Part shown: one piece after another, positions 1 through 34,747 of the stretch | Position numbering within the stretch: position 1 is the stretch's first letter | How the letters are laid out: each line of letters opens with the position of its first letter | NCBI GenBank assembly: GCA_038087875.1 | Contig: CM075988.1 | Coordinates: 22,198,001 to 22,262,000, forward strand | Reading direction: 5' to 3' | Length of the DNA: 64,000 bases | Source: Malacoraja senta | Taxonomy: Eukaryota | The notes under the pieces: model-generated | What the model saw: the letters and a program-made list of their open reading frames with translations, nothing else | Databases searched by the model: none | What the model was told of the DNA's origin: nothing | Program-made: the position numbers and the translations under genes

Positions 1-3000
1 TGGGATGCGTGAGGTATTGTTTCAGTCTTAAATGTCTGCTGTAAGTCATAAGGTCATAATGAGTAGAATTAGGCCATTTGGCCCATTAAGACTACTCCGC
101 CATTCAACCGTGGCTAATCTACCTCTCCCTCCTAACCCCATTCTCCTGCCTTCTCCCCATAACCTCTGAGACCTGGTGTAGTCCAAGTGTATAGGAGAGC
201 AGGGATTACTGCTGTTTGGTAGACCATAGGTGTCATATTGGATATTTCTATCTTCAATTATCCATTCCTTCAACTGACCAAAGCCTGTGCTTGCACATTG
301 AAGTTCATAGCAACATTCAAACTTATTGTCTGCCTTTGCTAAGAGGTGACTGTAAAGCCATAGTTCAAGGCCCACAAGATCAATGCAGGGAAATGGCAGT
401 GATGTAAAAGGTTAGCCTGAAGTGGATAATATTGAATGGCAGAAACAGACACGAGGAGCCAAATTGCCTACATCTGCTTCCATTTCTTGTAATTCTGCAA
501 GTGGAAATGGCACTCCAGCATGTATCCCTCAGGCACTCTACTTAATATATGCCTCAACCCAATCATCTTAATGAGAATCACAGTTTCCTTCCTGCTACTT
601 CCTTCCCTTCGTATGATTTAGATGTTCAACTTCTGCAGCTGCCTTTCCTTATGAATCTTATCAAAGACTTCCTGAATATCTATGTTAATCAGTAGGGAAT
701 AAGAATACTATATAAAAATCAGGCACAAATTGCTCAATATTTTTCTCGCCATTAACACAAGGGTTGGAAAAGTACCCCAAAAGCTACGTGCTTTTGAAAT
801 TTATATTCTGGCTTCTACTGTGAAAAAATCTACAACTTGGGTGTTTGAAAGGAAGGTAGATCTCCTTACATCATGATTTCTTAGTTTATTTGCATTATTA
901 CATCAAAATATTTGTGATCATAGTATCTACTTTTAATAAAGAGACAAATTTCCTTCTAATTATTAACATAATAGAAACAATTATCAATAAAAGGCTCCAC
1001 AGCAGCAGAGTTGCTGCCTGACAACGTCAGAGACCCAGGTTCAATTCTGACAATGGGTGCTGTCTGTATGGAATTTGTATATATTCCTTGTGACCGCGTA
1101 GGTTTCCTCCCACATCCCAAAGATGTGCAGGTTTATAGGTTAATTAGTTTCTCTAAATTGTCCCTAGTGTGTAGGATAGACTAGTGCACGGATGATTGCT
1201 GGTCATCGCTGACTCAGTGGGCCGAAGGGCCCGTTTCCACGTTGTACCTCCAAACTAAACATAAACTAAACTAAGACTATTGAAGTACTTTTTTTTCCTT
1301 AAAATTTAAAAATTCTATAATTGTTTGTCGTTATAAGCAGAAACCATCCAGCATCTAATGATTAATTTCAATGATGGTTGGCAGTTTACAAAACCCAGCA
1401 AGCAAAGATAAATGCCAGAAAACACACAAAATGTGGTCCTTAGAGCTCCTAAACCCAACCTGAATCAGTAGCAAACAAATTCCAAAACAGTTTTACTTTG
1501 ATTATCTTGGATATTTGATTGGATTGTACTAATGGTTCTGAAGGGAAACAAAAGCAATCAGCTGCTCCTGGGTAAGTAAGTCTGGGATAAGCTGAGTAAC
1601 AGATGCTCGTACATCTGCCACTTCGTTCCACTGGTGGACACAACGTGCAGGCAACAGCAGTGCCCAACCATGCTGGGGAAACCACCTCTGTGATCCCAAG
1701 CCAAGCAGACCAGGCATTAGCTTGGAATCTTGAATGGGAAATTCTGACCTGGAATTGAGAGAAAAGTAGTATTTCACATTATGTCTACATTATCATTTTT
1801 ATTCACGTTATTGCCAAGATATTTTTAACTATTAGATATTATGAAGTATAAAAAAATATTCAATCAAGGATGTTTAAAAATTGTTTTTAAATGTTTCCAA
1901 GCTTTAAATGGAGAGGGAGCCACAACCTTGGCTTTGTCTAAGAAGGATCTGCAAATGCTGGTTTAAACCGAAGATGGACACAAAAAGGTGGAGTAACTCA
2001 GCGGGTCAGACAGCATCTCTGGAGAAAAGGAATAGGTGACGTTTCGGGTTGAGTCTGAAGAAGTGTCTCGACCAGAAACGTCACCTGTTCCTTTTCTCCA
2101 GAGAAGCTGTCTGACCCGCTGAGTTACTCCAGCTTGTTGTGTTCACCTTGACTTCTGTTAGAGTACTTTAGGTTATTCTGCGACCTTGGTTTAAAGTACA
2201 CAACATCCGACTGGAGTCACCATTATTCCCAGGGGCAAATAGTCATTGGGTCTGGTCCAAATACACAAGAACCTCCTGACCCCACAGAGAATGCTGACCA
2301 CAGCTCAGTCTTTTACAGATGGAAGTATCATCAAGGATGCCTGATACCCTGGCCATTCTCTTCGCCCTTTTTACTGAGTGAGTACTAATCACAAATTAGG
2401 CTTGATACTAACCCTTCAACTTCACTGAGCTGGGAGGAGATGCCTTATCAAGCCTAATTCTTGATTAGTACAAGTGTCAGAGGTTATGGGGAGAAGGCAG
2501 GAGAATGGGGTTAGGAGGGAAAGATAGATCAGCCATTATTGAATGGCAGAGTAGGCTTGATGGGCCAAATGGCCTAATTCTACTCCTATCCCTTATGACC
2601 TCAAGTCCAGTCAATTTCATTGCACTAACAAGTAACCAACAAACACAAACAACACCAAATCACAATCCATGATATCCTCACCAGATTCATAAAATTTTCA
2701 TCATTATCAATTGCTTCAGACCAATGTTTTAACACTTGAGCCATAGGCCCATTCCAGTGTTTTTGACCCATGTGAACTGCTAACCCCATTCTACAGCACT
2801 ATATAAATGAGTTAAACTTCAATAAAAAAATACAATTACAGACTAGTCTGAAGAAGGGTCTCGACCCGAAACTTCACCCATTCCTTCTCTCCAGAGATTC
2901 TGCCTGTCCCACTGAGTTACTCCAGCTTTTTGCATTATCCACAATTACAATTCTCCTTTCACGTTCTCCAGTGTAGTCACAATGAAATTAGAAGCAAAAC

Positions 3001-3043
3001 TCATCCTGATAAATTTCTCCCCATAATGCAGCTTGGGCCTTAA

Positions 3044-3045
<2 letters not shown>

Positions 3046-3075
<30 letters not shown>
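3046..3075. repeat. (CT)n microsatellite
   Basis: Direct inspection. Confidence 0.9.
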
Positions 3076-3076
<1 letters not shown>

Positions 3077-6000
3077 AGAAAATGAATTATCTTTCTCCCT
3101 CAAGAGGGCTGCCTCGCTTTCATCCCAAACCTTCCAGGCTCCTTCAGTTAGAGTCATCTGAATGAATGAATTATACTTTATTATCACATGTGACATGTCA
3201 CAGTGAGATCCGTTGTTTAAGAAGGAACTGCCGATGCTGGAAAATCGAAGGTAGACAAGTAGTACTGGAGAAACTCAGCGGGTGCAGCAGCATCTATGGA
3301 GCGAAGGAAATAGGCAACGTTTCGGGCCGAAACCCTTCTTCAGACTGATTGTGGATAAGTGGTGTTTCGGGTCAAGACCCTTCTGAGTTCCTCCAGCATT
3401 TTGTGTCCTTTTGTGTATTAACCAGCATCTGCAGTTCTGTTTTTTTCATGATTCAATCAAATCCTGACATTTTAATACCTCAAGGATGGAAGCATCCAGT
3501 TTTCTTTCCTATCAATGATAGATTTCCTACTTCATAGAAGGCAATGTCCACCGAAACTCAAGAGGAAATGGAGTGAATAAATGTTACCTGAATTGTTATC
3601 TCCCATCGATTCCCTCAGAGGCACACATTACAATGTCTACAATTTTGTTTCAAAATGATTTAATTTACCAATTACCTAAAAAACACTGGAAAAAATGCAG
3701 GTTAGGCAGCATCTGTGGGAAGAGAAACAACCAAAATTTCATTCAAAGGATTGTGCAAACTGAAACATAGACGTCGCTTTGTTCCACAGATGTACCTGAC
3801 TTGCCGAGTACTTCCAGCATTTTCTGTTTTTATTTTAGATTTCCAGCATCAGCGGTGTATTTTTCAAATCTTTGTTTACCACTTAGCTGTCCCATTAAGT
3901 TTCATAGTTATATTTAAGATAATATAACTATAAAATCTATTTTGCAAGTTGCAAATTATAGATTTGTCATTTTTCAAAGGTTCATACAAACTTTACGTCA
4001 GTTAAGTTGTTCAAGGGGGCACGTAAATTACTTCACATTTTCCTGTCCAATCACGCTCAACAAATCGGCGTTTTACAAGCTTGAAAGGATGGTTACATCA
4101 GGAAAATGGGATGCAAAAGAAAAACAGTTTCAGCGTTGAACAATATTAAATGCAGGATCAGACTTTGTATATCAATCGTGAATTAATTTTTGGCTGAGAC
4201 AGACTCTCTATTATCCTGCGCACAAAGCCAGGATATAGCCTGTACAGGAACTGCTGGGATTTGTATCTCCCTGTTGCAGCTGTGCTGATTGTGCAAAAGT
4301 TTGAAGAAATTCGCACCAAGTACAATGGATCTGTTTTGATTATTAAGTCTTGGCTCTATTTACAAAAAAACCTAAAAATAATTGAAAAACAAATGACTCA
4401 ACATGATTTGTGAGTTTCTAAGTTGTGTCCCCACCCTAAAACTCACTGTAAAAGCCAAACACAAATTTGATTCCTGAAATGGAAGGGGGATGGGGGACAT
4501 TGCCCTAAAAGGAGAAATCAAGCAGCATGGGTCATTTCTTCCATTCTCAAGAGAATATAAGGGGTATGACACAAAAAAAGATGGAGTAACTCAGCGGGTC
4601 AGACAGCATCTCTAGAGAAAATGAATGGGTGACGTTTTGGGTCGAGACCCTTCTTTTGAAGAAGGGTCTTGACCCAAACCTCACCTATTCCTTTTCTCCA
4701 GAGTTGCTGTCTGACCCACTGAGTTACTCCAGCTTTTTGTGTCTATCTTTGATTTAAACCAGCATCTGCAGTTCCTTCCTACATAATATGAAGTGTTCTC
4801 ATTCTAACATAGAAACTCTTATGGATATTACAGCCTGATGTTTCCAGCATTTTCACTTATGTGGCAGGTGTTTTTCTTTTATTTATAGATTTTTGAATAA
4901 AATAAATATCTAGGGTTCTGGGAAACAGGCAGGATACTGGAGTTGAGGCCAATACCTACTGATGCTCCAATTTTCTATGATTGTATCATCCTGTATATAT
5001 GCAGGCAGTCCCCAGATTACGCAAGGTTCCGTTCCTGAGAACAGTCTGTAAATCAGGAGGAAACAATTTCAAGAGGATCAATCAGTACTGTTTATCTACT
5101 GCTCTCCCCATCTGTAGTTTCTCTGTATCAGAGTTAGAATGGCCTGGTTATTTTTGATGTACGTAAAGGTATCAGTGGATATTAACATTGTTAGGTAAGT
5201 ATTTTGCAAGTGTCAAAAGAAGAGATTTGACTTGTCAGTTTCCAAGGCAAATTGCATTTGTGGCCTCCCACTGTGCACCAGCAGATGCATTCCTGAAGAC
5301 AACATATCTAATTGTTGCAAGGAGATTACATGTAAACTGAATGTCCTTTGAATTAACTAGCTGTTACCCTATAGTGTAATTTCTCAAGATGTTTGTATTT
5401 TGGTAACTAACGTTTCAGTCTTGAAAAACTCCATTACTGTAGTCATGTCTTCCACAACCAAGGAGTCCCATACACCAAATACTATAAAGTCAGTCATTAT
5501 TTCTTCACTGAGAAATTCTGTAATGCAGTTTTTAATATAAACAAAACTATCATATAAACTCTAATATAAATAATATAAACATCTCATCTACTGTAACTAA
5601 ATCTAAATTTTGATGGCACAAATTTTAGTTCACATATTACAAATCAAGGGTTAGCATCCAGAATATAAATGATCCGCAATGATTTGCAATGTTAAAACTT
5701 TCTTAACATTGCAAATTAGATTGCTTTCCAATACCAAATATTTCTTGCTGATCCACAAATTCATTCCCCACTTAAAAATCTGCACTCAGATGGTATAACA
5801 AAGAGGATCTGCATCTGTTGCCCTGGTTTTAATGAAGCATACTTTAGAACAAAGGATCACAAGGAATAGAAGCAGAAGGACATTATTTTGCCTCATTCGC
5901 CTGTTCCACTAATCAATAAGATTACGGATGATATTTTACCTCAGCACCACTTTCCTCAATTTGCTTAGAATTTTGCCCATTTCAATGCTCAGTCCTTACT

Positions 6001-8141
6001 TCTAAACTCGAGAAAACATCCTTAGGCTGCTAATCTCTCTATACAAGACTAAACCATAATCCCCAGAATCAATCTGGACAACATTTACTGCACTCTCCAA
6101 TTATCACAGTATATCCTTCCTTGTATACAGAGACCAGACCTATACACAATGCTCCAGATGGTTTGGAGTTAGACCTCTACTCTTGTACTCCATTCCTCCA
6201 GGAATAAGGCAAGTGTACTGTATGCCTTCCTAATTACTTGCTGAAACGTGTTAGCTTTGAGATTGGTGTAGAAGGACATTCATGTCCCTCCAAGTACAAA
6301 TGCTTTTCAATGTGTCACCACTTAAAAAATACTCTGTTTTTTTAATTTAATATCAAGGTGATGACCTCATTTTTCCCCCCACATTACATCTACCCTTGTC
6401 CATTCCATTAGGTTGCCTAAATCCCTGAAGTCTCTCAGCAGCCTCCTCATGCAGCACTAATACATGTAGCACACTGATTTCACCGTTAGCACTCAAGATA
6501 GCAGATTTAATCGCCTGCGAGACTGCATGAGCAATTACGTGACATTGCTGCTGAGACTCTTACAAGGCGACCAAGCTACATTTTCTTAACATATCCTCTC
6601 GAACAGATTGACACAAAATGCTGGAGTAACTCAGCGGGACAGGCAGCATCTCTGGAGAGAAGGAATGGGTGACGTTTCACGTCGAGACCCTTCTTCACGA
6701 ATAGATTGATGTTTTGTAGCGTGGTTCCCTGAGCAATTGGGGGAGGCAGGGAAAACATTTTGAGTTAGAGCCCTTCTTCCCCTTCTCCTGAAATATCCTC
6801 TTACAAAGGTTTTTTTGCCTCTCGATTCTTTCTTCATGTTCTCATTTGTCCCCTGGAGCCCACAGGATCACAATTAGGTAATCCATGGTGGAAATGAAAG
6901 CAATTCTGATCACCATCTGGACACATGAAAACAGTTGTGGCAGCAATCTTTTGCCTCCAATAAAAGTTGCATGTGAAGTTGCATGTAACCCGTGTTAAAA
7001 GCTGCTTTTCTTCACAGGGCTAATTACTTCTAATGGGATGGGTATGCAACAATCTTTAACAATGTTAAAGACTTAACATAGACACAAAATGCTGGAGTAA
7101 CTCAGAGGGACAGGCAGCATCTCTGGAGAGAAGGAATGGGTGAGTCGGGGAGTGGGAAACCAGAGATATGGAAGGGTACAAAGTGCATGTAAGGTGTGAA
7201 AAGAACAGATCAAAGCAGACAATGGTCATAGAGCTGGAGAGCAGGAGGAATTACAGAGGGGGAGCAGTGAAAGAGGGCAGAACTTTCAAGAACATGCAAA
7301 CTCCACACAGTTGGCATCGGAGGTCAGGATTGAACTTGGGTTGCTGGAAATGCTGCAAAATCTCCACCAAGTGCACCACCCTGATTGAAAATAAATAACT
7401 GCTGCAATGGGGTATGAACCCGTTAGTTCTTTAACCCAGTATATCAACCACTGTTTCTATGGCTCTATGAAATGTTGCAATCCGAAGCATGATTTATATA
7501 ATTTTTGAGAATATGCAAAAAAAAATGATGGGATCCTTTGCTTTTCAGTGAATTTATATGGGTCAGGTCTAAAAGTATGCGTTATTTGTACTCATCGAGT
7601 TGTGATCTTGCTTTCTTACAAGCTATTATTGTTCAAAATAAAAAAGTTGTTTGTTGAGGAATTAGCAGCTTGATTAGTGCCTTGTTCTGAGAACAAAGAC
7701 TACTTTGTCCATTGAGATGCTGTCACATAACTAGTGTCTAATATACACAAGCTGTGCATGGATTTCTCTACATTCCCTTCATGAAGAAAATATTTTCCAG
7801 GCACAAAGATATCTATGTGCAAAATGATTAAATCAAATTGCAAAGTAACAGCACTCAAATCTATAATTTTAATCCTTCCAGGTTGCTGCCCACCACCACA
7901 AAAAAAATAATAATCTTGTTTTCAGTCATTATGAATTGCACAAAATTACACATGAACATCTTCGATGAATTGCAACATCTCATTAAGCTTTAAGTGCACT
8001 CACTTGGGCCTGTTTTAATGTTAACTACTTTAATCAGGATTATTGTTGTTCTGTGGGAGAGAATTAAGTGGGACAGAAATAGACAACAGGGTTTTAGTTG
8101 AAGCATGTTTAGCCTGAATGCACCACCTCTTACTTAGTGTT

Positions 8142-8481
8142 AAAGAAGGAACTGCAGATGCTGGAAAATCGAAGGTACACAAAAATGCTGGAGAAACTCA
8201 GCGGGTGCAGCAGCATCTATGGAGCGAAGGAAATAGGCAACGTTTCGGGCCGAAACCCTTCTTCAGACTGATAGGGGGTGGGGAGAAGAAAGGAAAAAAG
8301 GACAAAGGCGGAGGAGGAGCCCGAGGGCTGGGGGAGGGGAGGAGACAACCAGATGGCTGATGAAGGGGAGGGGACAGCAAGGGCTAGCAGAATTGGGAGA
8401 ATTCAATGTTGAGGCCCCCAGGATGTAGACTGCCCAAGTGGAATATGAGGTGCATTTTCTCCAATTTACGGTGTTGTGGAA
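8142..8481 (-). mobile_element. 5'-truncated Penelope-like insertion with 15-bp target-site duplication
   Basis: CTCTTACTTAGTGTT at 8127-8141 and 8482-8496; hammerhead-like core at about 8239-8266. Confidence 0.75.
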
Positions 8482-9859
8482 CTCTTACTTAGTGTTCCAT
8501 TAATTATGTGAATGCAGGACATGCTGAGGTAAAGCATCAGAGGTCCCACTTTACAACTGCATCTTTACAAAAACACTTGATCCTAACAAAAATTTGTGAT
8601 TTTCTGTTGGCTATTACTGAACACGGTGGCGAGGGTGGGTGGCACAGTGGTAGAGTTGCTGCCTTGCAGAACTTACAGTGCCAGAGACCCGGGTTCAATC
8701 CCGACTAAGGGGGCTGTCTGTACCTTTGCTTTTCTCAGTGAATTTATATGGGTTAGATGGGTGACCTGCGTGGATTTTCTCTGATTCCTTCCCACACTCC
8801 AAAGACGTACAGGTTTGAGGGCTAATTTGCTTGGTATGAATATAAATTGTCCCTGATGTCTGTGTAGGATAGCATTGATGTGCGGGGATCGCTGGTCGGT
8901 GTGTACTCGGAGGGCTGAAGGGCCTGTTTCCGCACTGTATCTCCAAGCTAACTAAACTAAATTAGCATTGTCAGTGTAGATTACTTCAGTAATGCTGGAA
9001 GCACATATGATTTTTGTTATTGTAGATTCTGAAAACTGTGATGTTCACACAAATAAACAAATGGAACATTGAAACAAATGATGTTACTTTACAACAGTTA
9101 TGAATGATTAAAAAACAATATTTCACACAAACAACACAAAGGTCGGTGAATTATTTGTTCACAGAAACATAAGAAAACAGGAGTGAGCCACTCCGCCCTT
9201 CAAGCTTGTGCCGTCATTCAATATAATCATGGCTGATCGGCTCCAGGCTTTATGTTCTTCTGTGCCAGTCCTCAATTTCCTGATCTTTTGAAACTTTATC
9301 TACTTATTCTGAAAATTTGCCTCATGGTCTAGCCACTATAACACACCGAGGTAAAGAATTAGCGATTTATCACCATCTGCATAAATATGTCCCTACTCTC
9401 CAGAGCTTTAAATAACTGCCTCCAAATTACGAATGAGACATAGACTTCAATCCATTTTTCTGCATGCAGCTTACAACAAATCAGGTACTTGTGCCTTACC
9501 ACTGAATGGGTTAACTGAATGGCCAGACCAAGATCCCAATCAGCAAAAGAACTGTCTGCATTTGAAGATCTCAAAAAGTCATCAATTCCATGCAAAACAA
9601 ATTACGGTGCATCTTTTATCAGTGTTTTCTTTAAACCCAATGACGATAGTTTACTCAAACTAAATGCGATTGATTTCCTGCCACAATTATGACAATTAAG
9701 GATGTTGGGAACTGCTTGCATGTTTTGTATTGCCCTTCCTTTATGGCTGATGGTGGGAATTCCATAACCACAGACAGTTCAATTTCTTATTTGGGCACAT
9801 TTTATTCATCAAAAAAGATTATCAATCATCTTAAGAGTGAACAACTATTAACACACGGC

Positions 9860-10985
9860 ACATTTAACAAGGGGGTCTACAACATTATTGCCATCACTGA
9901 GACATGGCTACAGGGCAGATAGGGTACAGAATTTTTAGGCAAGACAACAGGAGCAAAATGGCAGGAGGTTCATCAAACATTGCATTACCTCAGTTTTGAG
10001 AGATGATATCCTAGAAAGCTCCTCAACGAGGCCACACGGGCAGAGATTTGAAACTAAAAGAGTGTTATCATTTTGCTACAGGTATCGTAGTCCGATCAAC
10101 AGGTGGCAGAAGAATGTATGTAGGCAAACAGAGTTACATTAAAAGTAGGGCTACCATAATGGAAAGTTTCATTTTCCAGAATATTAACTGGGATGTCGAG
10201 GGGTATTGACGGCGGATAAAAGAAAAAAAGGAAACATGCGTCAAGGTAAATGGAGATAATGCCAATGAGGCTAGAACAGACATTGTGAATGGTTGGGTCT
10301 TTCGGAGTATTATTGAGGAACCAAAGGACTTTGGTGTACGTCCATAGATCCTTGAAAGTGGTAACACAGGTAGATAACGTAGTTAGGAAAGCATTCGGGT
10401 TATTGGACATCAATAATTGGGGCACTGGATTCAGAAGTAGTGAGGTTTTGCTCCAACTCCATAAAACCTTAGTCAAACCTCAGTCAGAGTACTGCATGCA
10501 GTCCAGGTCACTGTCCCATAAGAAAGATGTGGCAGCTCCAGAGAGGAGATTCACCAGGACATTGCCTGGGATGGAGGAGATCAGTTATGAGGAGTGATTG
10601 GACAAGCTAGGTCTGGAGCAGAGGAGGTTAAAATGGGACATGATTGAGATATTTAAAATTATGAGGGATATACATAGAGTAGACTGCAGGAAACATTTCC
10701 CCTTTCAGAGGTAGCTAAAACCAGAGGACCTCGATTTAAGGGAAGGAAGAGGGTTCTGGGAGGGGGTAGGGAGGAGATTTAAAGATGATATGATAAGCAC
10801 CCCCCAAGATAGTGGTATGTATCTGCTCCAGAGAGTGCTTGAAGCTAGGTTGCTGATGGCATTTAAGAAGTGTCTAATTGTACCGTTGAATTGCTTAGGC
10901 ATAAAAGGCTGAAAAAATACCAAAGGGTGTCTGCTGATCAGTGTGGACATTGGGTGGAATGCTGTGAGATTCCATGATGCAGAAT
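9860..10985 (+). mobile_element. Degenerate CR1 LINE fragments
   Basis: IIAITETWL (endonuclease) and LVKPQSEYCMQ (RT C-terminal) remnants. Confidence 0.7.
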
Positions 10986-13801
10986 GCTTGTGATCAACCC
11001 TAGCCAAGTCATTCACATCTGTTAATCACTTTTGCAGCATCTATGAATATATTGGCATTGGTTTATTATTGTCACGTATACCGAGATAATAATAATAATA
11101 ATAGATTTTATTTATATAGGGCTTTTCAGGACTCAAAGTCGCTTTACAATTGAGAGTCAGGAATAAACAAAACAAAATAGAGCAGTAAGACAGAGGGGAG
11201 GGGAACATGGGACTAAGGGTATGCAGAGGTCAAGAGATGGGTCTTGAGGCGGGACTGGAAGATGGTGAGGGACTCAGAATTTCGGCACTCAGAGATGCAG
11301 TGAAAAGCATGCTATCCAATTAAATCAGATAATACCATGCATTACTGCAATCAAGCCATCCACAAATACAACAGGCAAATAGAAAAACACCAGCCTTTAG
11401 AATATACAGTAGTTTTTCATCATTTTAGCATAGTTACAGAGAAATAAAACAAATGTCCACAACAGAGACAGTAGTCTTTGATCATCTAGAATCAAATGTT
11501 ACTGTTCACAATTGAAATCTCAGATAATAAGAATAATAAGATGAAATTATAATACAGAAGGATAATTTGTAATGTCAGAATGAACCATTTCAGGTTAGCT
11601 TTTTCTCTGCACATGCTGCTTGACCTGCTGAGTATCCCCACAATTTACTTTTTTTAACTCTTGATCTTTGAAACGAATAAACCTCTTAATAGACTTATCA
11701 ATAGAAACAAAAGAGAAAACATGAGAACTGTTTACACTGAAATTCTACTCGTAGTACCAGGTAATCTCGGTCACATATGGACATATTATAGCGCACATTT
11801 AAAATCAGAACTTTATCTGACTCTCAAGAAAATGGTAGCAGAGATCAAACTGAAATTGAACAGCAGATTTCTATGTATAAACAGTATAGTTAAAAGGAAT
11901 AGTAGAAGTACAGAGGAGACATAAAACAGGAAACATATGAAAGGGTGTTTTGCAAGGAAAGATAAGTGTACTATAAATATTGAGGAATTAAAAGTCAAAG
12001 TAAGGGAGGCACCCCTTTTGGTACTTTCAGATACCTAATTGTAGGCGTCACACGCACTTTAAGTTTATATATTTTTTAATCTGAATAAAAAGCAGCAAAA
12101 AAAATTGTGACAATGCACTGTGACAAAGTTTGTGACAGTTCCACTGATACGGACAATTCATAAAAACACAAAAGTAATTTAAGATTACTACATTTGAATT
12201 GAGATTTACTTCATTGAAATTCAGACATTTTCAGTTTTCTTCTCGGCAGCACAAATGACCATTACATCAAGAAAGCTCCCCAGCAGATAGGCATTTAAGA
12301 TTACAAGCTCCATGGACCTCCGAAAACAGTCAACTCATTGCACAATGAATTTCCGTTTGCAAAATGCAGCATCTTAGAAACATAGAAAATAGGTGCAGGA
12401 GTAGGCCATGCGGCCCTTCGAGCCAGCACTGCCACTCAATATGATTATGGCTGATCATCCAAAATCAGTACCCCACTCCTGCTTTCTCCCCATGTCCCTT
12501 GATTCCATTAGCCCGAAGAGCTATATCTAACTTTCTCTTGAAAACATCCAGGAATTGGCCTCCACTGCCTTCTGGCCAGAGAATTCCACAGATTCAAAGT
12601 CTTGTACACAGTCTACTCTCGTACTTGAGGTAAGGACTATCCCAGCGTTTAAGAAACAGTTAGACAGGTACATGGATAGAACAGGATGGAGGGATATGGG
12701 CCAAACACAGGCAGGTGGGTTGGTCGGTGTGGGCAAGGTAGGCCTGTTTCCACGCAGTATTACTCTATGACTCTAAGCTCATTGAGAATATGCAGAGGTT
12801 AAATTTGCTTCAACGACAACTGGCCCTTAGCCAGCAGCAACCAGTTTCCATCCAGAAACACATTCAAAAATGATTATGTTACGTCTAAGCACGGCAACTA
12901 CATACCTGGGTGGCAATGTACCTATTCCAACATTTCACCAGCAGTTTGACAGCAACCACAACACTTAACTGCAGCTGAACAACAGACACCCTTCAACATC
13001 ACAGCACTATGAGTAAATCACTCAATGTCATCACATCAACTGCTTTGACAAGGAGTTCCTACCACATTTGTTAAGCAGATTTACCCCTACTGCTTGAACT
13101 GGAATAACTTTGCAACGAAATATGTAGGAAGGAACTGCAGATGCTGATTTAAACTGAAGATAGACACAAAATGCTGGAGTAATTCAGCGGGAGAGGCAGC
13201 ATCTCTGGAGAAAAGGAACGGGTGACGGGTCTCGACCTGAATCTTCACCCATTCCTTCTCTCCAGAGATGCTGCCTGTCCCACTGAGTTACTCCAGCTTT
13301 TTGTGTCAAACTTTGCAACGAGTTATGTTAAGCTGCTTGCGCTGGAATAAGATTGCAATAAATTGTGTTAAGTTATACTTTAAACTCTGCACCCTTTAAA
13401 ATGCAACAACCCTGTACGCAGTCCGCCCGGAGTGCGAGGACAGACTGTGTAATAGGGACAGTCACAAAATACTGGAGTAACTAACTCAGCGGGACAGGCA
13501 GCACCTCTGGAGAGAAGGAATGGGTGACGTTTCGGGTGGAGACCCTTATTCGGGGGCATTGTAAAGGGTACAAGGTTTAGAGTGAAATTTAACATAAGTC
13601 CTGGCTGCACAAATTCTCAGCGAGGGGAAGGCGGCGAAGACAGCTCGGACTACAGCGGGGCAAAGTAACGGCGCAAAGATCCGCGCTCCGGAGCGAAGCA
13701 GCAAATACAGAACAATTCCCCTTCCCCGTCCCCGACCGTGGCCACAGTCACTGTGAAATCCAGGTCCGGTCCGGTCCTGTCCTGTCGTCGCCCTCACTTA
13801 C

Positions 13802-13853
13802 CGTGGGCCAGCACGATGCAGAGCGGCGGCAGCAGCGACACCCCGCCCGCCAT
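13802..13853 (-). CDS. First exon of an unidentified gene (MAGGVSLLPPLCIVLAH, signal-peptide-like, phase-1 donor)
   Basis: CpG island, strong Kozak aagATGG, consensus donor CACG|GTAAGTG; no downstream exon confidently identified. The ATG could instead be a 5'UTR YY1 motif. Confidence 0.55.
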
Positions 13854-13859
13854 CTTCAC

Positions 13860-13905
13860 CCCGCCGCCCGCCCGTCACTGGGCATGCGCACTCCGCTCGC
13901 GCAGA
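13860..13905 (-). promoter_or_regulatory. CpG-island promoter with GC boxes and an NRF1-like site
   Basis: CCGCCCGCCC and GCATGCGCA (about 13882-13890) immediately upstream of the 13853 exon. Confidence 0.6.
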
Positions 13906-14311
13906 GTCATGGCAACGGGGTCCAGCGCCATGGCAACGGGGGTCCAGCGCTATGGCAACGGGGGTCCAGCGCCATGGCAACGGGGATCCAGCGCCATGGC
14001 AACGGGGAGATGAGGTTCAGCTCCATGGCAACGGGGAGATCAGGTTCAGCGTCATGGCAATGGGGGGGAACAGCGCCATGGCAATGGGGACCCAGCGCCA
14101 TGGCAACGGGGAGATGAGGTTCAGCTCCATGGCAACGGGGAGATGAGGTTCAGCGTCATGGCAATGGGGGATCCAGCGCCATGGCAACGGGGAGATGAGG
14201 TTCAGCTCCATGGCAACCGGAGGGAAGAGGTCCAGTGCCATGGCAGGGGGGAAACAACGCCATGGTAACGGGGTCCAGCACCATGGCACAGGGTCAAGCG
14301 CCATGGCAACA
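13906..14311. repeat. Minisatellite of 17 units (about 21-22 and 29 bp) built around CCATGGCAAC
   Basis: Units counted by eye; 11 contain ATGGCAAC, 1 ATGGTAAC, 3 ATGGCAAT, 2 are degenerate. Confidence 0.92.
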
Positions 14312-15369
14312 GAGGGGAGTGCATGTGTGGCCTCAAGACCACCGGGGAGAGATGCCCGGTCGGTGGGTGGTCAGGAGCAGAATAACACACAGCAATGATG
14401 TACAGGTGGCAATCTAGGTGACGGCCGGGCTCAGGCGAACTCACGGCACACAGTAGAGCTGCCGGAACACAGACAACAAGAAACATCGCAGTACAGGAGG
14501 TTCTCCTATAATGCGATGGTCGTGATCCTCAGAAACCTTGCGCTATAGGAAATCACATTATACAAACAACTGTGGCAATGGAGACTGGGGGGCAGAGAGT
14601 TTCAGAGCTGTAATAACAGTTATTTTTCTTTCAGAATTTTCAAAAATCTAAGTTTTTTCCGATGGCAGTAAGCTTATTTTTATTCAAATTGAAACTTACA
14701 ATACTGGAGACACAAGGCATGTGTCCTTGTGAGTTATACGTTCTCAAAAGACAATGATGTGTGCATACTACAGGTTTACAAAAATCCCAGAGTACTGGAG
14801 TAACTCAGCAGGTCAGGCAGATCTCTGGGGAACAAGGAGAGGTGACATTTTGCATCGGGACACTTCTTAGACACTGAAAATACTGACGACTGTACGTACA
14901 TTGTTTAACAGAGTATCATTGCACATGTGTCAACAGAAGCAATTGTTTGTCAAGTTCAGTGGCCTCGTGGATCAATTGATAGCAGTATTCTGAAGAGACT
15001 ATGCATAGAAACATAGAAAATTGGTGCAGGAGTAGGCCATTCGGCCCTTCGAGCCGAATATGATCATGGCTGATCATCCAGAATCAGTATCCTGTTCATG
15101 CTTTTTCCCCATATCCCTTGATTCTCTTAGCCCTAAGAGCTATATCCAACTCGATGCAACCTGATTATTGCGGGGAGGGTACATGGAAACAATCTTTTTC
15201 CCCTAGACTTTTCCCCCATGACAACTTTTTTCTGCTTGTCAATTTCCCAAGTAACATTTGAGTGGTTCTCTAATGTGTGATTACATTTACAATATAACGA
15301 ATTCAACTGGCATAATGTATATGGTGTTCCCTAATTCATCACTCACATTATATCCAGTTTGTGTTGTGG

Positions 15370-15880
15370 AAACAGCAGAACCATGTGTGCTGGCTCACCA
15401 TGTGTGCTGACCAACATGTATCATTTATACTAGTCCCACCTGCCTGCATTTAGCCTTCTAAAACTATCCTATCCATGTACCTGTCCAAATGTCTTTTAAA
15501 CATTGTGGTATTACCTGCTTCAACTCTCTCCTCTGGCAGCTCGTTAAAAAGTTGCCCCTTAGGTTCCTATTCAATCTTTCCCTTCTCATCTTAAACTTAT
15601 GTCCTCTGGTTCTTGATTCCTCTACTCTGGGTTAAAGACTCAGTGCATTCATCCTATCTATTCCCCTCATTATCTTATAGACCTCTTCACCCCTCATTAT
15701 CATGCGTTCCAAGGAATAAAGTCCCAGCCTGTTCAACCTTTCCCTGTAGTTCAGGCCCTCGAGTCCTGGCAACATCCTTGTAAATCATCTCTGCACCCTT
15801 TCTAGCTTAACAACATATTTCCTATGACAGGATAACCAAAACAGCACACAATACTCCAAATGTGGCCTCACCAATGTCCT
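15370..15880 (-). mobile_element. CR1 LINE 3' fragment
   Basis: Similar to the other CR1 3' ends in the window. Confidence 0.7.
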
Positions 15881-18800
15881 GGGTTTCCTCTAGGTGCTCT
15901 GGGTTCGTCCCACATCCCAAAGACGTGCTGGTTTGCAGGTTAATTGGTCTCTATAAATTTCACCTCGTGTGTGGGGGATGAACGCAACAATGGGATAACA
16001 TAGAACGAGTGTGAACGGGTGGTCGATGGTCAGCGGTGGGCTGAAAGGCCCGTTTCCATGCTGTATCTCTAAACTAAACCAAATTTAATTTAAGCACAAC
16101 TCAGTTTTAATGACTGGACCTTTATTAGGAAGGGGATCAGGAAACCTACAATGATTCAGTAATAAGCAAAGGAGGCAGATGCTTCTACAACCACAGATGT
16201 GATTTCAGTACGTTGTACGCATGGTGTCAGTGTAAGTGACTGCAGGGTTACCTGACAGGGACGGGTGGTTCACCATAGATTGTGCTATCCACCACGAGAA
16301 AGAGGGAAGAGACACTGCTGCCAGATTATACAATTGTAAAGAGATTAAAACAAAGGAACTCAAAGTCAGTAATCTTCAGATTATTCCATGTGCCAAGTGC
16401 CAGAAAATTCTGAAATAGAATGGTATAAATGAATACACAGAGACACAAGCAGCTGAAGATGCTGGAATCTTGAGCAATACACAAAGTGCTGGAGGAATTC
16501 AACAGGTCGGGCAGCATCTGTGGAGGGAATGGGCAGGTGGCATTTTGGGTCAGGACCCTTCTTCAAGCTGATTGTAGTAGGGGGTAGAAATCGGGAAAAG
16601 AGAAGTCAGGGCAGGACAAAGCCCAGTAAGCGATAGGTGGATACAAGGTTGGGGGTTTAATTGGTAATCGAGCTACTATGCTGTATTAGAATCCACACAA
16701 GGCTGAAGCACAGGTTCTGTGCATAACTAGGAAAGTTAACGGAGTGTTCTTGTTTATGGCTGGGAGATTGAATGACAAAATTAGGAAGGTTATGCTTCAG
16801 TATTCCAGGCCCAGTCATCATCAGCTGCTCCCTTTACAAGATTAGTTATGAGGATATTTGAAGATGATTGCACAAAATTCAATTCCACTCCTCAGATAAC
16901 AAAGCAGTCAATGTTTGTCTGCAAATAGAGGCATCTCCTACAGATGCAGTCATTCTGTCCAGAAGATGCTTCTTGGAATTGCCACATTATGCAAGGCACA
17001 CTGTAGGTGGGACTGAGCTCACTAGACATGCTCGCAGTTCAGAAAGTAATGTCATATGCTAGTGGGTAGAGAAATAGGAGGACAAGTGGTTAAAGGGATG
17101 GTGTAGGAGGGAAAGCTTTGGATTTCTCGATGACTGGGACCTTTTCTGGAAAAGGCGGGACATGTCAAGGATGGATTATTACATATGAACTAGGATGGCT
17201 ATAATATTCTTGTGAGGGAGTTTGCTGCTGCTTTAGAGGGTTTAGGTTAAACAAATTTGGCAGGGAAATGGGACATAGAGTCGATGTATTGTTAGGGAAA
17301 AGTGCAATCACATGTAAAAGGAAAACTAAATTAGACCAGCAGGCTGAGCTGACATGGATGAGTGTGATAAGGCACGTGGGAGGAATGCAAGGTTAACTTG
17401 CAACTATTTTAATATACAAGGCATATGACTAGTAGGGCGGCTGAACAAATAATTTCATTGCTCCCTTTTGTATATGACAAACTAATCCGAATCTCAATGA
17501 AACTTTAAAACCTGCAATCTGAAATAGAAAGAATGCTGGAAACATACAGCTGGTCAAGAGCATCTATGGAAACAGAGAGAGAGTTAACATTTCAGGATCT
17601 GAATGTTTATCCATTTCCCTGACTGTCCAAGTATATCCGGTTTAGACTGAAGACGAGTCCCGATCCGAAACATCATCTGTCAAAGCTCTCCACAGATGTT
17701 CTCTGACCCCCTAAGTTCCTCCAGCAGTTTGTAGTTTTGCTCAAATTCCAGCATCGGCAATTTCTTGTGCCTCTCTGATATTTTAGAATATTCAAGGTTT
17801 TAAGGTCAGTTTATTGTCACATGTACCAATTAAGGTACAATGAAACTTGAGTTACTCTCTCAATACAAGGAAGGACTTGAATGCACCAAGAGAGTTCTTC
17901 ACCATTCAGTTAATGACAGTGATGAAACACAACCGGTGGAGACAGAACAACACGTAAGCGATATAAAGGGATATTTTCATTCTGGATGAATGAAGTTGCA
18001 AATTGTGTGACACAGAATCGGTGGCTGGGCACCAGAGATCTCGTTGGACATTTTGCTGTATCATTGAAAGGGGGCAGATGGAGCCTGTGGGGGGAGGGGG
18101 GGAAAGAGATGAAATTGGAAGTAGAAACAAGAGGTTGGTAAGTGATAAGAGGAGATATAAAAGGCTACAGATGCCATTATTTCATGTATGGAAGACAGAG
18201 ATACAAGAAACTGCAGAAGCTGGAATCCTGAGCAAAAAGCAATGTGCTGGAACAACTCAGCGGGTCAAGCAGCATCTGTGGAAGGACAGATGATGTTTCT
18301 GGTCAGGACCTTTCTTCAGACTTGACACACATTTCGGGTTGAGATCTTTCTTCAGTCTAAGGAAGGCTAATGTAGTCTAATGGGCTACTTTCATGAACAT
18401 TGTCGTTGAGTAGAACAAATTATCCTACCTATCCTACTCCAATTATCCTACTGATCTTACCTTCTTCCACTACATCCTGCAGTCTTGCCATCAATCTTTA
18501 CTGTTGCCACTGCCCAGTCCATCACAGGTACTGAGGTACAGTAAAAAGCTTTGTATTGCATGCTACCCAATCTGATCATACCAGACAAAACTGCAATCAA
18601 GCCAAACTCAAGTACAATCGGTAGAATAAAGGGAAGGAAAGATACGAGTGCCGAATATGGTTCTCAACATTAGAATCAGTCATACAGCATGAAAACAGGC
18701 CCTTCAGCCCAGCTTTCCCATGCCAACCAAGATGCCCCATCTACACGAGTCCCATCTCCCCACATTTAGCCCATACCCGGCCTAAACTTTCCTATCCATG

Positions 18801-20049
18801 TACCTGTCCAAATGTTGTTTAAACATTAATATAGGACTTGCCTCAACTATCTCCTCTGGCAGCTCGTTCCTTATACCCACCACCCTCTGATTGAAAAAGC
18901 TGCTGCCCCTCAGGTTCCTATTAAATGTTTTCTCTCTCACCGTAAACCTATTTCCTCTGGTTCTTGATTCCAAAGTCACAGAAGAAAAGTGTAAAGTTTG
19001 CTGTTCTGGCACTGTCAATGATGAACCCCCCCCCCCCCCACCACCCCCCTCCCACCACCCCCTCCCCCACACACACAGGGTTGTGTTGAGAGCATAAATT
19101 ACAGTAAAGTTAGTATACATTTTCCAAATTAATTCCTGAAGTTAGCGACATGCCAGGATAAACAAGGAGAGGAAGATAAACAATAAATTGCAGCTGGACG
19201 TGCTTTATCAAATTAGTAGTTAGACAGAACAACAATAACAAGTATGGGATAATAAATCAGTTAAATGGATCAAAGTGCACACCACGTCCAATGACCTAAC
19301 TGAAGCCAATCTGAAAAAGTATATAGAATGGGTCACTCCGAATAAATGAGCAGAGGGTCCAGAAGCTTGAAAGTGCGCACCACCAGACTCAGGAACAGTT
19401 TCTTCCCCTCCGTTATCGGCCTTCTGAATAGTCCCTCCATCAGCTAGTGTACTGCCCGAATCACCTCTACCCTAATGTGTGCACTGGACTTTGTCTATGG
19501 TATACATGCGCTGCAATGCTGAGAACTATATTCTGCACTCTGTATCTTCCCCTTTGCTCTCTCTATTGTACTGGAGTTTGACGATTGTATTTACGTATAT
19601 GGTATATCTGGTTTGTTTGGATGGCACACAGAACAAAGCTTTTCACTGTACCTCGGAATGTGACAATAAACCTAAATCTAGTTCGGAGTTATGACAACTC
19701 TCGCTGCAACATGTTTTCTTCAGCCCTGTCTGCAAAGAGTAACAACGTGCTGAACCAGCCTAATCACTGCTAGAAACTCATCCGAACCACTCAGCATTTG
19801 CTGATAGAATTCTGATGCCCTATAATGCAAACCTTGTGGCAGATTGCACACTGCCTCCCTCTTGTGGCAGATATATTCATGAGCGCTGGTGACGCAAGAG
19901 ACTGCAGATGCTGTAATCCGGAGCAAAATACAAATTGCTGGAACAACGCGGAGAGTCCTGATGCAGGGTCTCGGCACGAAACGTCAACCATCCCTATGCT
20001 TCTACAGATGCTGCCTGATCTGTTGAATTCTTCCTGCAGTTTGGTCTTG

Positions 20050-20270
20050 ACCCGATCCATCACTGGTATTATCCCCCCCACCATCGAAGGGATGTACAAG
20101 AGGCACTTTGTCATGAAACCACCTCATATCATCAAAGACCCACACCACCCTGCCCACCCTCTTATCTTAGTGTTACCATCCTGAAGAAGGTACAGGAGCC
20201 CAAGAATCATTAGCTCCAGATTCAAGAACAGCTTGTTCCCAACAACCTCTGGGACCTTGAACCAGCTTGC
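20050..20270 (+). mobile_element. Rex1/Babar-like LINE 3' fragment
   Basis: IIKDPHHPAHPLILVLPS..RYRS..RFKNSLFP motif; similar remnant at about 19360-19680. Confidence 0.6.
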
Positions 20271-20439
20271 ACCGAACTTTTGAACTACCGTAGCACCTTA
20301 GACTTTGTACAAGGCAATACTCATGTTACGTGAGAGCGTTTCTGTTATCCAGGAACCATGTGCAGGCTGGAGATATCACGGCCGGTAAGGAGTGAATGTC
20401 TTCTAACGGTGCACAGAGCATGAGATGTGGGCTTGGTGG

Positions 20440-22230
20440 TCTTATAGAGTCATACAGTACAGAAACAGGCTCTTCAGCCCAACATGTCCATGCCAACCAA
20501 GATGCCCCTTCTGATCTAGTCCCATTTGCCTGCATTTGGCCTCTTATCTTTTCCTATCCATGTACCTGTCCACGTGTCTTTTAAATGTTGTTATAGTACC
20601 TGCCTCAACTACCTCCTCTGGCAGCTCATTCCATATACCTCCATCCTCTCACAGTAAACCTATGCCCTCTGACTCTCGATTCCCCTTCCCTGGGTAAAAG
20701 ACTGTGCATTTACCCAATCAATTCATCTCATAATGTTATATACTTCTATAGGATCATCCCATAGCCTCCCACACTACAATGAATAAAGTCTTGACAAGGA
20801 ATAAATATTTCTCTATAACTCAGGCCCTTGAGTCCTGGCAACATCCTCATAAATCTTCTCTGCACCCTCGCCAGCTCAAATGCCACCCTTCCTATAGCAA
20901 GGTGACCAAAGCTGAACACAATGCGCCAAATGCGGCCTCACCAACATCTTGTACAAGTGCAACATAATGTCCCAACTTTTATAAGCAATACACTGACTGA
21001 TAAAGGCCAATGTACCAAAAATCTTCTTTACTGCCCTTTCAGTGATGCTAATTTCACGGAACTGTACCCGTACTCCTAGATGACTCTGCTGTACAATACT
21101 CCCAAGGGTCTTACCATTCACTGTGAAGGTCCTGCCCTGGTTTGATTTCCACAAATGCAACATATCACACTTATCTGCATTGAACTCCATTAGCCATTCT
21201 TCAATCCACTTGCCTAGCTGATTAAGTTCCTGCTGTAATTTTTGATAACCATCTTCAACGTCTGTGATACCAGCTACATTAGTGTCAGTTGCAAATTTAC
21301 AATTCAAGCAAACAGTAATGGGCCCAGCACTGATCCCTGAGGCACTCCACTCCAGTCCGAAAAACAACCTCCACCATTACCCATGGCTTCTTTCTATGAA
21401 ACCAATTCTGCATCCAGTCAGCTAGCTATCCCTGGATGCCATGCGATCTAACCTTCTAGAGTAGCATACTATGTGGAACCTTATCAAAGGCGTTGCTGAG
21501 TCCATATCATTTATGGCTTTACCTTCATCAACCATCTTGGTTATTTCTCCAAAAAAATTCGTGAGACACGATCTCCCACACACAAAATGTCATATGAGGA
21601 AAGATTGAAAAGACTGGGCTTGTATTCACTGGAGTTTAGAAGGATGAGGGGGATCTTATAGAAACATATAAAATTATAAAAGGACTGGACAAGCTAGATG
21701 CAGGAAAAATGTTCCCAATGTCGGGCGAGTCCAGAACCAGGGGCCACAGTCTTAGAATAAAGGGGAGGCCATTTAAGACTGAGGTGAGAAAAAACTTTTT
21801 CACCCAGAGAGTTGTGAATTTATGGAATTCTCTGCCACAGAGGGCAGTAGAGGCCAAATCACTGGATGGGTTTAAGAGAGAGTTAGATAGAGCTCTAGGG
21901 GCTAGTGGAGTCAAGGGATATGGGGAGAAGGCAGGCACGGGTTATTGATAGGGGACGATCGCAATGAATGGCGGTGCTGGCTCGAAGGGCCGAATGGTCT
22001 CCTCCTGCACTGAATTTCAACAAAAAAAAATCACGTTGACTATCCCCCATCAGCCTCTATACAAATGCAAAAATATCTTATCCCTCAGAATCCTCTTCAG
22101 TAACTCATCTGCCACAGATGTTAGTTTCACAGATCTATAGTTCATAGGCTTTTCCTTGCATCCCTTCCTAAATAGAGGCACATTAGCCACCCTCCAGTCA
22201 TCCGGCATCTCACCCATGTCTAATGATGAG
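20440..22230 (-). mobile_element. Degenerate CR1 LINE RT fragment, interrupted by a + strand CR1 at about 21588-22012
   Basis: KFATDT...WLMEFNADKC...LVRPHLAHCVQLWSP on the - strand; SRTRGHSLRIKGRPFKTEVRKNFF on the + strand insert. Confidence 0.8.
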
Positions 22231-22265
22231 TTGAAAGAACAAAGTGATCAGATGCTTACAACGCA

Positions 22266-26607: not shown

Positions 26608-26790
26608 CCCTTTGTTCTCAGCGGTCCCACCACGCTGGGTCCCTCTTTGTTCTCGGTGCACCCCCATGCCGGGTTCTCCTTTATTCTCGCGCTGTCCCCC
26701 CACGCTGGGTCCCTCTTTGTTCTCGGTGCACCCCCATGCCGGGTTCTCCTTTATTCTCGTGCTGTCCCCCCACGCTGGGTCCCTCTTTGT
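26608..26790. repeat. 70-bp minisatellite (about 2.6 copies) in TRAPPC4 intron 3
   Basis: CCCTCTTTGT recurs at 26641, 26711 and 26781. Confidence 0.85.
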
Positions 26791-26811
26791 TGTCGGCAGA
26801 GCGTGCAACTA

Positions 26812-26904
26812 CCAGCACCCACGTGGCCCTATCCAACCTCCAGCACCCACGTGGCCCTTTCCAACCTCCAGCACCCACGTGGCCCTTTCCAACCTCCAGC
26901 ACCC
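26812..26904. repeat. 28-bp minisatellite (3.3 copies), each full unit with CACGTG
   Basis: CCAGCACCCACGTGGCCCT at 26812, 26840 and 26868. Confidence 0.85.
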
Positions 26905-32052: not shown

Positions 32053-32227
32053 CTTTGATGCCATCCCTCTGGCCGAAAGACACCACCACCCGCTCGTCGT
32101 ACACCTTCAACACCAGGTCCAAGGGATAGCTGAAGGTCTTCTCCACGTCGGTGCGGGGCGAGTAATTGTCATGCTGGTAGACCAAGCCGCCGGCTTTATT
32201 CACCACATACACACTGAACACCACCAT
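32053..32227 (-). CDS. TRAPPC4: TRAPPC4 exon 1
   Basis: [58 protein letters not shown]; Kozak gccATGG; donor GTGAG. Confidence 0.97.
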
Positions 32228-32246
32228 GGCCGCTCCCTCCCTCACG

Positions 32247-32267
32247 GCCGTCTGGGAAATGTAGTTT
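32247..32267 (-). promoter_or_regulatory. ZNF143/THAP11 (SBS2)-type motif at the TRAPPC4 promoter
   Basis: - strand reads aaACTACATTTCCCAGacggc, matching ACTACAnTTCCCAG, about 20 nt upstream of the ATG. Confidence 0.75.
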
Positions 32268-34650
32268 AACCAGAGATCCTATAGAGAGGATCCTTGGCTT
32301 AACTCACATACAGACACAACATGCTGGAGTAACTCAGCGGGACAGGCAGCATCTCTGGAGGGAAGGAATGGGTGACGTTTTGGGTCGAGACCCTTCTACA
32401 GACCAAAGATCCTCTAGGATCTTTGCCACAGACTGAGAGTCAGGGGCAAAGATACTGGTCAGGGGGGGAGGTTAACTAGAGATCTAGTTAACATCCCCTA
32501 GTTAAGATCTGGAAGGGCAAGGTGCGAAAACGACAGATCAAAGCAGATGGTGGACAAAAATGCTGGAGAAACTCAGCGGGTGAGGCAGCATCCATGGAGC
32601 GAAGGAAATAGGCGACGTTTCAGGTGGGGTCGAGACCCTTCTTCAGACTCCTTCTTCAGACTCAAAGCAGGAAGTGATCAAGTAAATGTAGAATGCTATT
32701 CTGACAATCAAATCAAAAATTACATTCTTGATTAGTACAGGTGTCAGGGTTACGGGAAGAAGGCATGAGAATGGGGTTAGGAGGGAGAGATAGATCAGCC
32801 ATGATTGAATGGCGGACTAGACTTGATGGACCGAATGGTCTAATTCCACTCCTATTCCTTATGACCTTCTGCTGGAGTAACTCAGCGGGACAGGCACCAT
32901 CTATGGAGAGGAATGGGTGATGTTTCAGGTCGGGACCCTTCAGACTGAGAGTCAGGGAGGGGGAGACTGGAGGTGCATTTCCTTGATCATAGTCTACTTT
33001 GATGTATCCTTTTCATAACTTACATGCTCTGTGTGCCCTTCTATATCTCTCTGTCTGAAGAAGGGTCTCGCCTATTCCAGCTCTCCAGAGATGCTGCCTG
33101 ACCCACTGAGTAACTCCAGCATTTTGTGTCTCTCTTCACTGTTGTTCATTCTTAGCAGGTCTCAACTCCAAGAGGGATTCTGAACACTTTTTTCTTTTTA
33201 AATATAGTCGAGGAGATCAACAATAACTTCCTAATCTTTCTCAACACAGTGAGTAAGCATTGTTTATTCATAACTAACGAATAAATTGTACTGCAGTATT
33301 CTGAAGAAGTAGAAACAAGAAACTGCAGATGCTGGTTTATACCAAAGATAGACACAAAGTGCTGGAGTAACTCAGCGGGACAGGCAGCATCACTGGAAAT
33401 AAAGGATGGGTGTCGTTTTGGGTCGGGGCCCTTCTTTAGACCTATTAATGAACGTGTAGGTTCCTTAACATAACTTAACTAACATAACACTACCATTTAA
33501 AAAGTGGTCTGCTTTACTTCTGTGCACAAGATTGATAATTTCAGATTTTTCCATATTACATTGTAGTTCCACATCCATGTCTATTTATTCAACTGGCTGA
33601 AATCTCATTGAAGTCTCTTCACGTAATCTTCTCCTAGATTTGTATCATCGGCAAACTCGGAAATATGACCCTTGGTCTGCTCAATCAAATTATCAATGTA
33701 GATTTCAAATAACTGTACCTCAAACATGGACCTGCAATACCCCATAAATCACAGCCTGCCAATCTGAGGAAGATCTATCAACTCCATCACTTTACTTTCG
33801 ATAAACTCTCTGAGATCCTCTTCAGACCCGAAACGTCACCTATTCATTTTCTCCAGAGATGCTGTCTGACCCACTGAGTTACTCCAGGTTTTTGTGTCTA
33901 TCTTCGGTTTAAACCAGCATCTGCAGTTCCTTTCTACGCATTCTTATCCATATCAGTACATTACCAACTCCATATGCTCCAACCTCCTGTGCGGGTGGAA
34001 CATCATGCAAAACCTCCCAAAAATCCAAACACAACATTTACTGTAACTTCACATACTCTTACCCTACCTAATTTTCTATGGCTGTGATACTCTATTCTGC
34101 ACTATTTTATTCCCATTCGCTCTATCTGAATATCAATCAGTATGAAGATGGGTCCAGACCTTAAATGTTACCCAGCTATGTTCTCCAGAGATGCTGCCTG
34201 ACCTGCTGATTTACTCCAGCACTTTGTGACTACAGTATCTGCACTTTCCTTGTGACACCACTGTTCGTGTATCTTGTCAGGCTAGCATGCAAAACAAAAT
34301 CGTGCCCTATATCTCGATACAGATGAGAATAATAAACCAATCTACAGGTCCCATCCTGGAAGGACTCCAGTAACCCAACGTGAATTTTCTTTCATATTAT
34401 CCCTGCTGTCGCTCAGAAGCTGCGCCCCTGCAAACCCGCGGGCCGGGTGCTGGAGGTGGGAAAGGCTGGGGTGTCTTCACGGGCTAGTATGGGCACGATG
34501 GGCCGAACGGCAGTCTGCGTGGCAAAATAAAAAAAACGTTCTACTATCCGGTGAAGCTGGCTGTCAAACGTGTGATGTGAGCCGGGTCCAGGAGATGGTT
34601 TGGTTTATAATTTTTCTGCATTTATTCGAAATTAATCCGCGAGCAAACCC

Positions 34651-34664: not shown

Positions 34665-34696
34665 GGCCAGTGGGGGGCGTCGTTTCCCGCTGGGGA

Positions 34697-34705: not shown

Positions 34706-34747
34706 GCCGAGGGGGCGCTGGGGTTTCCTGGGCTGACGGCGCACGGG

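Follow-up and report, generated by a model that had tools for sequence, protein, structure and literature searches.

A promoter minisatellite carrying a candidate RFX site in each repeat unit beside a CpG-island gene of Malacoraja senta

The window analyzed here, a stretch of 64,000 nucleotides from contig CM075988.1 of Malacoraja senta, was confirmed by Pfam to contain TRAPPC4, RPS25, and CCDC84, an order known in gar and mammals (PMC6109588). In those animals, slc37a4 and ccdc153 adjoin trappc4 (PMC6109588); exons of neither gene were seen in the Pfam searches or in the by-eye reading of the frames of the window. In particular, no SLC37A4 exons were found after TRAPPC4 (14300-22250), where gar, coelacanth, and mammals carry that gene. 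The next gene has the same orientation as TRAPPC4, which suggests a local rearrangement, and its CpG island lies approximately 8 kb beyond the end of TRAPPC4. The starts of TRAPPC4 and RPS25 are 2.5 kb apart (32227-34783), with several short interspersed repeats between them; in human, the pair lies much closer together. An intron of TRAPPC4 contains two adjoining minisatellites (26609-26904; 70/34-bp and 28-bp units), both devoid of RFX sites. An assembly gap of 200 N (58361-58560) falls within the first exon or intron of CCDC84, and a plus-strand exon with a start codon and a strong donor (63490-63524) is probably exon 2 of a gene starting near 58800.

The gene following TRAPPC4 is encoded on the minus strand. 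The coding part of its first exon (13802-13853) comprises 17 codons and one base and is followed by a strong phase-1 donor at 13801 (score of 10.2). This exon likely codes, and its hydrophobic product would resemble a short signal peptide ahead of a phase-1 intron. The surrounding region was described previously as a CpG island, and the segment from 13501 to 14000 indeed showed a GC content of 0.63 and a CpG observed/expected ratio of 0.90. Core-promoter motifs were located at 13843-13889, comprising a YY1-like motif (13849), GC boxes (13843, 13864, and 13868), and an NRF1-like motif (13882). Motifs of these three kinds are typical of housekeeping promoters.

To identify the product of this gene, the frames of the region were compared with protein collections. 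Pfam searches with 149 of the 184 minus-strand frames of at least 26 aa in 1-14100 returned two matches, those with 78 frames of 14269-20420 on both strands returned three, all at chance level, and 11 picked frames gave nothing under an E value of 0.07; the plus-strand frames of 1-13900 were judged by eye. A PDB search with the 26-aa first-exon frame gave no match. The large protein searches, for which the first exon was too short, took inner-exon candidates: the candidate at 1532-1789 had no match among 1.84 billion representatives, and those at 4913-5068 and 7993-8133 had no homologs in protein searches. TRAPPC4 exon 1 (32054-32227, minus strand), used as the positive control, yielded 226 matches, the top one being a ray cluster represented by a Mobula protein (95%). 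No metagenome contig matched the exact exon pattern, and exon 2 of the gene may lie outside the window.

Upstream of this gene, a minisatellite occupies positions 13901 to 14316. On the plus strand, each unit reads CAGCG-CCATGGCAAC-GGGG followed by a short or long spacer, and contains a single RFX-type site whose 3' half is strong and whose 5' half is degenerate. When the units were anchored on ATGG[CT]A, the 17 tandem copies counted by the sequence-only reading (at 13906-14311) were recovered, together with its two spacer length classes, which correspond to 11 units of 20-24 bp and six units of 29-30 bp. The unit lengths from 13901 onward were 21, 22, 22, 22, 29, 29, 24, 22, 29, 29, 23, 29, 30, 22, 21, 20, and 22 bp, and TRF reported periods of 22, 29, 81, and 104 over the array. 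The units are arranged head to tail and exceed 6 bp, as in minisatellites. The sequence CATGGCAAC was present in 10 copies inside the array and in one copy in the remainder of the 64 kb, both strands considered. The proximal units 1-4 (13901-13987; 21-22 bp) are of the type that seems to have been multiplied in relatives. Units 5-13 (13988-14231) form higher-order blocks of 104 and 81 bp carrying the 29-bp units, and include a block (units 5-8, 13988-14091) that one sequencing run of the same organism, X1, may lack. The distal units 14-17 (14232-14316) have diverged; they are represented by one orthologous contig in each relative, with sites gained or lost between species.

The array was said to begin about 50 bp upstream of the exon start. 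The distance is correct (48 bp), but it is measured to the start codon (13853) and not to the start of the exon. The units are located 48 to 463 bp from the start codon, so that the array lies within 500 bp of it, and the transcription start must be located either within these 48 bp or else inside the array or beyond it. The unit core was also held to be the best-conserved part of the repeat. It is kept within a 19-bp block, but its flanks are equally constant (leading CAG in 16, 17, and 16 of the 17 units; trailing GGGG in 15, 17, 16, and 15). The last C of GGCAAC was the least constant core position (12 of 17 units), and the six core columns ATGG.A are constant by construction, since the units were anchored there.

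The CpG observed/expected ratio of the array itself was lower than that of the island (0.55). No Rfam match was obtained within the window, the fold of the array was weak (z = -2.2), and the G4Hunter mean was 0.65, with values of at least 1.2 in 14 of 392 windows. A coding extension of the first exon through the array was rejected, as every upstream frame stops ahead of the start codon. A dispersed-repeat remnant (14498-14661), separate from the array and beginning approximately 180 bp upstream of it, attracted many unrelated, loose-ended contigs in all four sequencing runs compared; a plus-strand exon considered at 14635 falls inside this repeat and was dropped. At 14452, just upstream of the array, all three runs from relatives contain 13 extra bases, which were probably lost in the lineage of the window.

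Next, the units were scanned with RFX matrices. The JASPAR matrices for RFX2 (MA0600.1; T row completed from the column total) and RFX5 were taken from Table S4 of PMC5838959, the 80% cut-off for RFX2 being that of the same paper. As a result, 15 of the 17 units scored at least 0.80 with RFX2, nine of them 0.92-0.93, which agrees with the earlier comparison to X-boxes; with RFX5, 13 of the 17 reached at least 0.80. The common unit scored 16.5-16.9 bits on 14 core columns (per-site p of approximately 1e-6), and the nine best units outscored six of nine validated human sites under the same scoring. The RFX2 score of the unit was reached by seven of 200,000 shuffled 22-mers of the same letters (3.5e-5 per unit), and none of eight other tandem arrays scored in the window exceeded -2.7 bits, compared with 16.9 for the unit. 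Perfect RGYAAC half-sites numbered 12 in the 17 units. None of the 17 units fitted the strict X-box consensus GTNRCC-N0-3-RGYAAC (bioRxiv 2022.11.11.515474) or the consensus RYYNYY-N1-3-RRNRAC (PMC4168999), the 5' half of the unit starting with AG rather than GT; strong dimer binding is therefore not assured. Several validated human sites also deviate from the strict consensus, and the sites of HLA-DRA, CD70, and COL1A2 have a weak 5' half (PMC5838959, Table S5). Functional X-boxes concentrate within 500 bp of starts (PMC5838959). On paper, the units thus qualify as candidate X-boxes. The CAGCGCC half raised the alternative of an RE1/NRSE array for REST, which was rejected because all 17 units had three to five mismatches to the 17-letter RE1 consensus. 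In addition, 126 other sites in the window matched this consensus as well as with three mismatches. Half-sites of REST are treated in PMC4055426.

The adjacent gene had been proposed to be ciliary. This was not borne out: no ciliary identity was found, and an RFX2 site of at least 0.90 is present at three of the four promoters that were scored in the window. Within 500 bp of the start, the best RFX2 site scored 0.929 for the array gene, 0.934 for RPS25, 0.904 for CCDC84, and 0.748 for TRAPPC4. Since the RPS25 and CCDC84 promoters carry comparable sites, an X-box is no pointer to cilia here. The RPS25 site (34651-34664) is a strict palindromic X-box approximately 120 bp before the start codon, in the divergent region between RPS25 and TRAPPC4, and is the sole match to the strict consensus in the window. 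The CCDC84 site (58809-58822), flanked by the start of CCDC84 on one side and by a plus-strand transcript on the other, runs into a short CAGCAA repeat. A near-palindromic X-box (51938-51951; RFX2 score of 0.92) was also present in a CCDC84 intron; a 20-bp tandem repeat (51632-51727) lies approximately 200 bp away.

Contigs of four sequencing runs were aligned to 13555-14779, namely X1 (same organism, possibly the source sample of the window itself), X3 (organism C), and X17 and X22 (organism H; X22 is probably DNA). The comparison draws on 40 of 105 letter differences, 12 of 37 indels, and 32 of 82 aligned pieces. X1 supplied three local contigs with zero differences from the window, which confirmed the flanks and most of the array. 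The middle contig extends from 14107 to 14196 (90 nt). The piece predicted from the allele of the window would span 14115-14196 (82 nt), and that predicted from an allele lacking units 5-8 would span exactly 14107-14196. This suggests that X1 carries a 13-unit allele shorter by 104 bp; cleaning of the assembly graph could yield the same piece. Positions 14047-14087 were covered by none of the four runs, and such a contig gap is uninformative on absence. Dispersal of the minisatellite throughout the genome, which, without promoter association, the sequence-only reading named as counting against its proposal, was not observed in the window or in the X1 contigs (approximately 88% of the run read). 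No second copy of the array exists elsewhere in the window, and the X1 depth equaled that of the three local contigs exactly in all 11 bins checked (13883-14333), at the same settings that placed many foreign contigs on the dispersed repeat (14498-14661). These results argue for a single locus rather than a dispersed family, short of proof, given that approximately 88% of X1 was read, filters were applied, and contigs can miss sequence.

In both relatives, organisms C and H, array units were found between orthologous flanks that are 5-9% diverged from the window. Thus, the array predates this species and has been rearranged between lineages. One or a few X-boxes had been expected as the ancestral state; both of these relatives, which are close ones, carry arrays instead. 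The predicted variability of the repeat was confirmed between species, as the number and order of units differ among the three organisms. In X3, contigs connect position 14005 directly with 14147 and position 14033 with 14168, leaving out 141 and 134 bases, respectively, and X17 carries an additional unit of 20 bases after 14237. X3, X17, and X22 also gave contigs of 44-53 nt (52-nt contigs in each) at high depth over 13924-14005, and, in X3 and X17, the short units were covered 8-19 times as deeply as the flanks, a hint of more 22-bp copies in the relatives. A perfect 22-bp tandem would give a 52-nt contig at a word size of 31.

Base changes in the relatives were then assigned to the core and non-core positions of 14202-14316, where X3 showed 5/50 versus 5/65, X17 3/50 versus 3/65, and X22 4/50 versus 4/65. 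The difference was not significant (p = 0.7-1.0) in this small test, which has little power, with 6-10 changes per run among 40 of the 105 differences; at that power, no excess conservation of the core, and hence no selection on it, was detected in 14202-14316. Among the X3 changes listed, the first exon had one (13815, synonymous in its frame), compared with 16 in 246 intron bases (p = 0.32). Individual sites differed between species: unit 14 was strong in the relatives only (17.8 versus 4.3 bits), unit 15 was strong in the window only (11.5 versus -0.9 to 4.3 bits), and units 1, 3, and 17 scored somewhat higher in the relatives covering them. The persistence of the array in three organisms, together with the high scores of the amplified units, could be explained by selection.

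The reading that we prefer, with a probability of roughly 0.55, is a single-locus, GC-rich promoter minisatellite that was seeded by an RFX site, is probably bound by RFX, and would have a modest or saturating effect. The array would have originated from a tandem duplication of approximately 22 bp holding an RFX site of the proximal promoter, a seed with one perfect GGCAAC half, a CC-AT center, and a degenerate 5' half. This duplication would predate the split from the relatives that are now 5-9% diverged; a single-box ancestor has to be presumed, since no arrayless species is among the three organisms compared. Ongoing turnover by duplication of units and blocks may then have produced the 104/81-bp blocks with 29-bp units here and, apparently, runs of 22-bp units in the relatives. 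Dimers of RFX1-3, or the broadly expressed RFX1/5/7, would bind several units where chromatin is open. A length of 22 bp corresponds to approximately two helical turns, and such spacing might let neighboring sites fill. The role of an ordinary promoter X-box, for a CpG-island gene with housekeeping-type motifs, would fall to the units nearest the start; further units would add little owing to saturation, and the array length would be mostly a by-product of repeat instability and not a selected dial. In human, 6.0% of the regulatory VNTRs tested were tied to expression, a share that was about twice as large within 100 bp of a start (PMC8024321); this low share implies a low base rate for an effect of length.

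A stronger version, in which lineages re-expanded different unit types, with high-scoring sites retained beside the start, and alleles of 13, 17, or more units grade the RFX-dependent expression of one gene, appears unlikely. Slightly less likely is a selected rheostat, along the lines of the sequence-only reading, whose copy number sets the RFX2/3 drive of a ciliary or testis gene. The strong matrix scores, the position beside the start, and the retention of the array in three organisms are consistent with such a rheostat, and fine-tuning of targets has been proposed as a role of multiple X-boxes (PMC4168999); in worm neurons, weak expression was obtained with three full X-box variants in tandem but not with half-sites (bioRxiv 2021.02.03.429678). 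However, no ciliary identity was found for the gene, comparable sites stand at the RPS25 (0.934, strict consensus) and CCDC84 (0.904) promoters, and the core shows no excess conservation. Moreover, RFX1, 5, and 7 are ubiquitous and the targets of RFX7 are not ciliary (PMC8287911). A neutral GC-rich minisatellite in which the RFX likeness is coincidental or the sites are unoccupied is judged a little less probable again. Other GC-rich tandem repeats occur in the window, including at the RPS25 island (34802-34856); the motif was chosen post hoc from a large number of candidate factors, no unit has a 5' half that agrees with the consensus, and the CpG observed/expected ratio is reduced in the array. 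Against coincidence, the chance of 3.5e-5 per unit would rise to no more than an estimated few percent once several hundred motifs are taken into account, and the site is placed where X-boxes are expected.

It is improbable, more so than neutrality, that the cluster dampens the promoter, either because RFX1 is recruited by partly methylated units and acts as a repressor or through closure of the MORC3 type. In its 5' half, the unit is similar to the validated site of COL1A2, where methylated DNA is bound by RFX1 together with HDAC1/mSin3 (PMC8106159). Reading the C of the unit CpG as T raised the score from 16.9 to 17.8 bits, and several unit changes are CpG transitions, but the gain is small. 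According to PMC13373173, a paper that mentions RFX zero times, MORC3 maintains tandem repeats with large homotypic clusters in a closed state. A partly transcribed array acting through upstream start codons in a 5' leader is very improbable. The strand of the gene has an ATG in strong context in almost every unit, 18 in total (14324-13885, minus strand), all closing before the main start; however, translation would be almost abolished by this number of upstream frames, and the core-promoter-like motifs between the array and the start codon suggest a transcription start just below the array. Marginally less probable still is that the array represents one copy of a family, minisatellite or transposon-derived, that is dispersed without any tie to promoters. 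The repeat remnant at 14498-14661 does lie 180 bp upstream, and the depth over the short units is high in the relatives, but the window holds no second copy and the three local contigs account for the X1 depth in all 11 bins, which, with approximately 88% of the run read, is not proof.

The class to which the array belongs is already known, both as a promoter VNTR and as a homotypic motif cluster; what sets it apart is the RFX-type site as the unit. Promoter VNTRs and eVNTRs (PMC8024321; PMC12776774, e.g., MAOA) are likewise minisatellites adjacent to the start, with 20-30 bp units containing a factor motif and variable length and order; here, by contrast, the motif is an RFX site and variation in length within the species is hinted at. 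The homotypic clusters restricted by MORC3 follow the same principle, one factor's motif multiplied by tandem repetition, with up to 61 SPI, AP-1, or SP/KLF motifs (PMC13373173). They differ in being distal enhancers, with RFX absent from the factors reported, whereas the array has 15-17 candidate sites at a CpG-island promoter. The X-boxes of ALMS1 (PMC2913254), HEATR2 (PMC4168999), and Table S5 of PMC5838959 share the combination of a strong RGYAAC half with a 5' half that is degenerate and lie within 500 bp of the start (for the array, of the start codon); those promoters have one or two conserved boxes, whereas here the site is the repeat unit and forms no strict palindrome. Tandem RE1/NRSE sites for REST, also head to tail and proposed to arise from tandem duplication, reach up to five copies (PMC1557810), but concern another factor, and the units here are not RE1. 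No natural minisatellite of RFX sites was found in the literature searched (titles and abstract openings, with few subscription papers); the tandem X-box case that was found is a synthetic worm reporter (bioRxiv 2021.02.03.429678).

In summary, the array as it stands neatly exemplifies a familiar kind of promoter repeat. The effect of multiple X-boxes on a promoter has been described as unclear (PMC4168999). If both the binding and a length effect are true, the locus would provide a natural test of multiple X-boxes in cartilaginous fish, and if the dosage dial is true, it would offer a ready-made allelic series for X-box number versus output.
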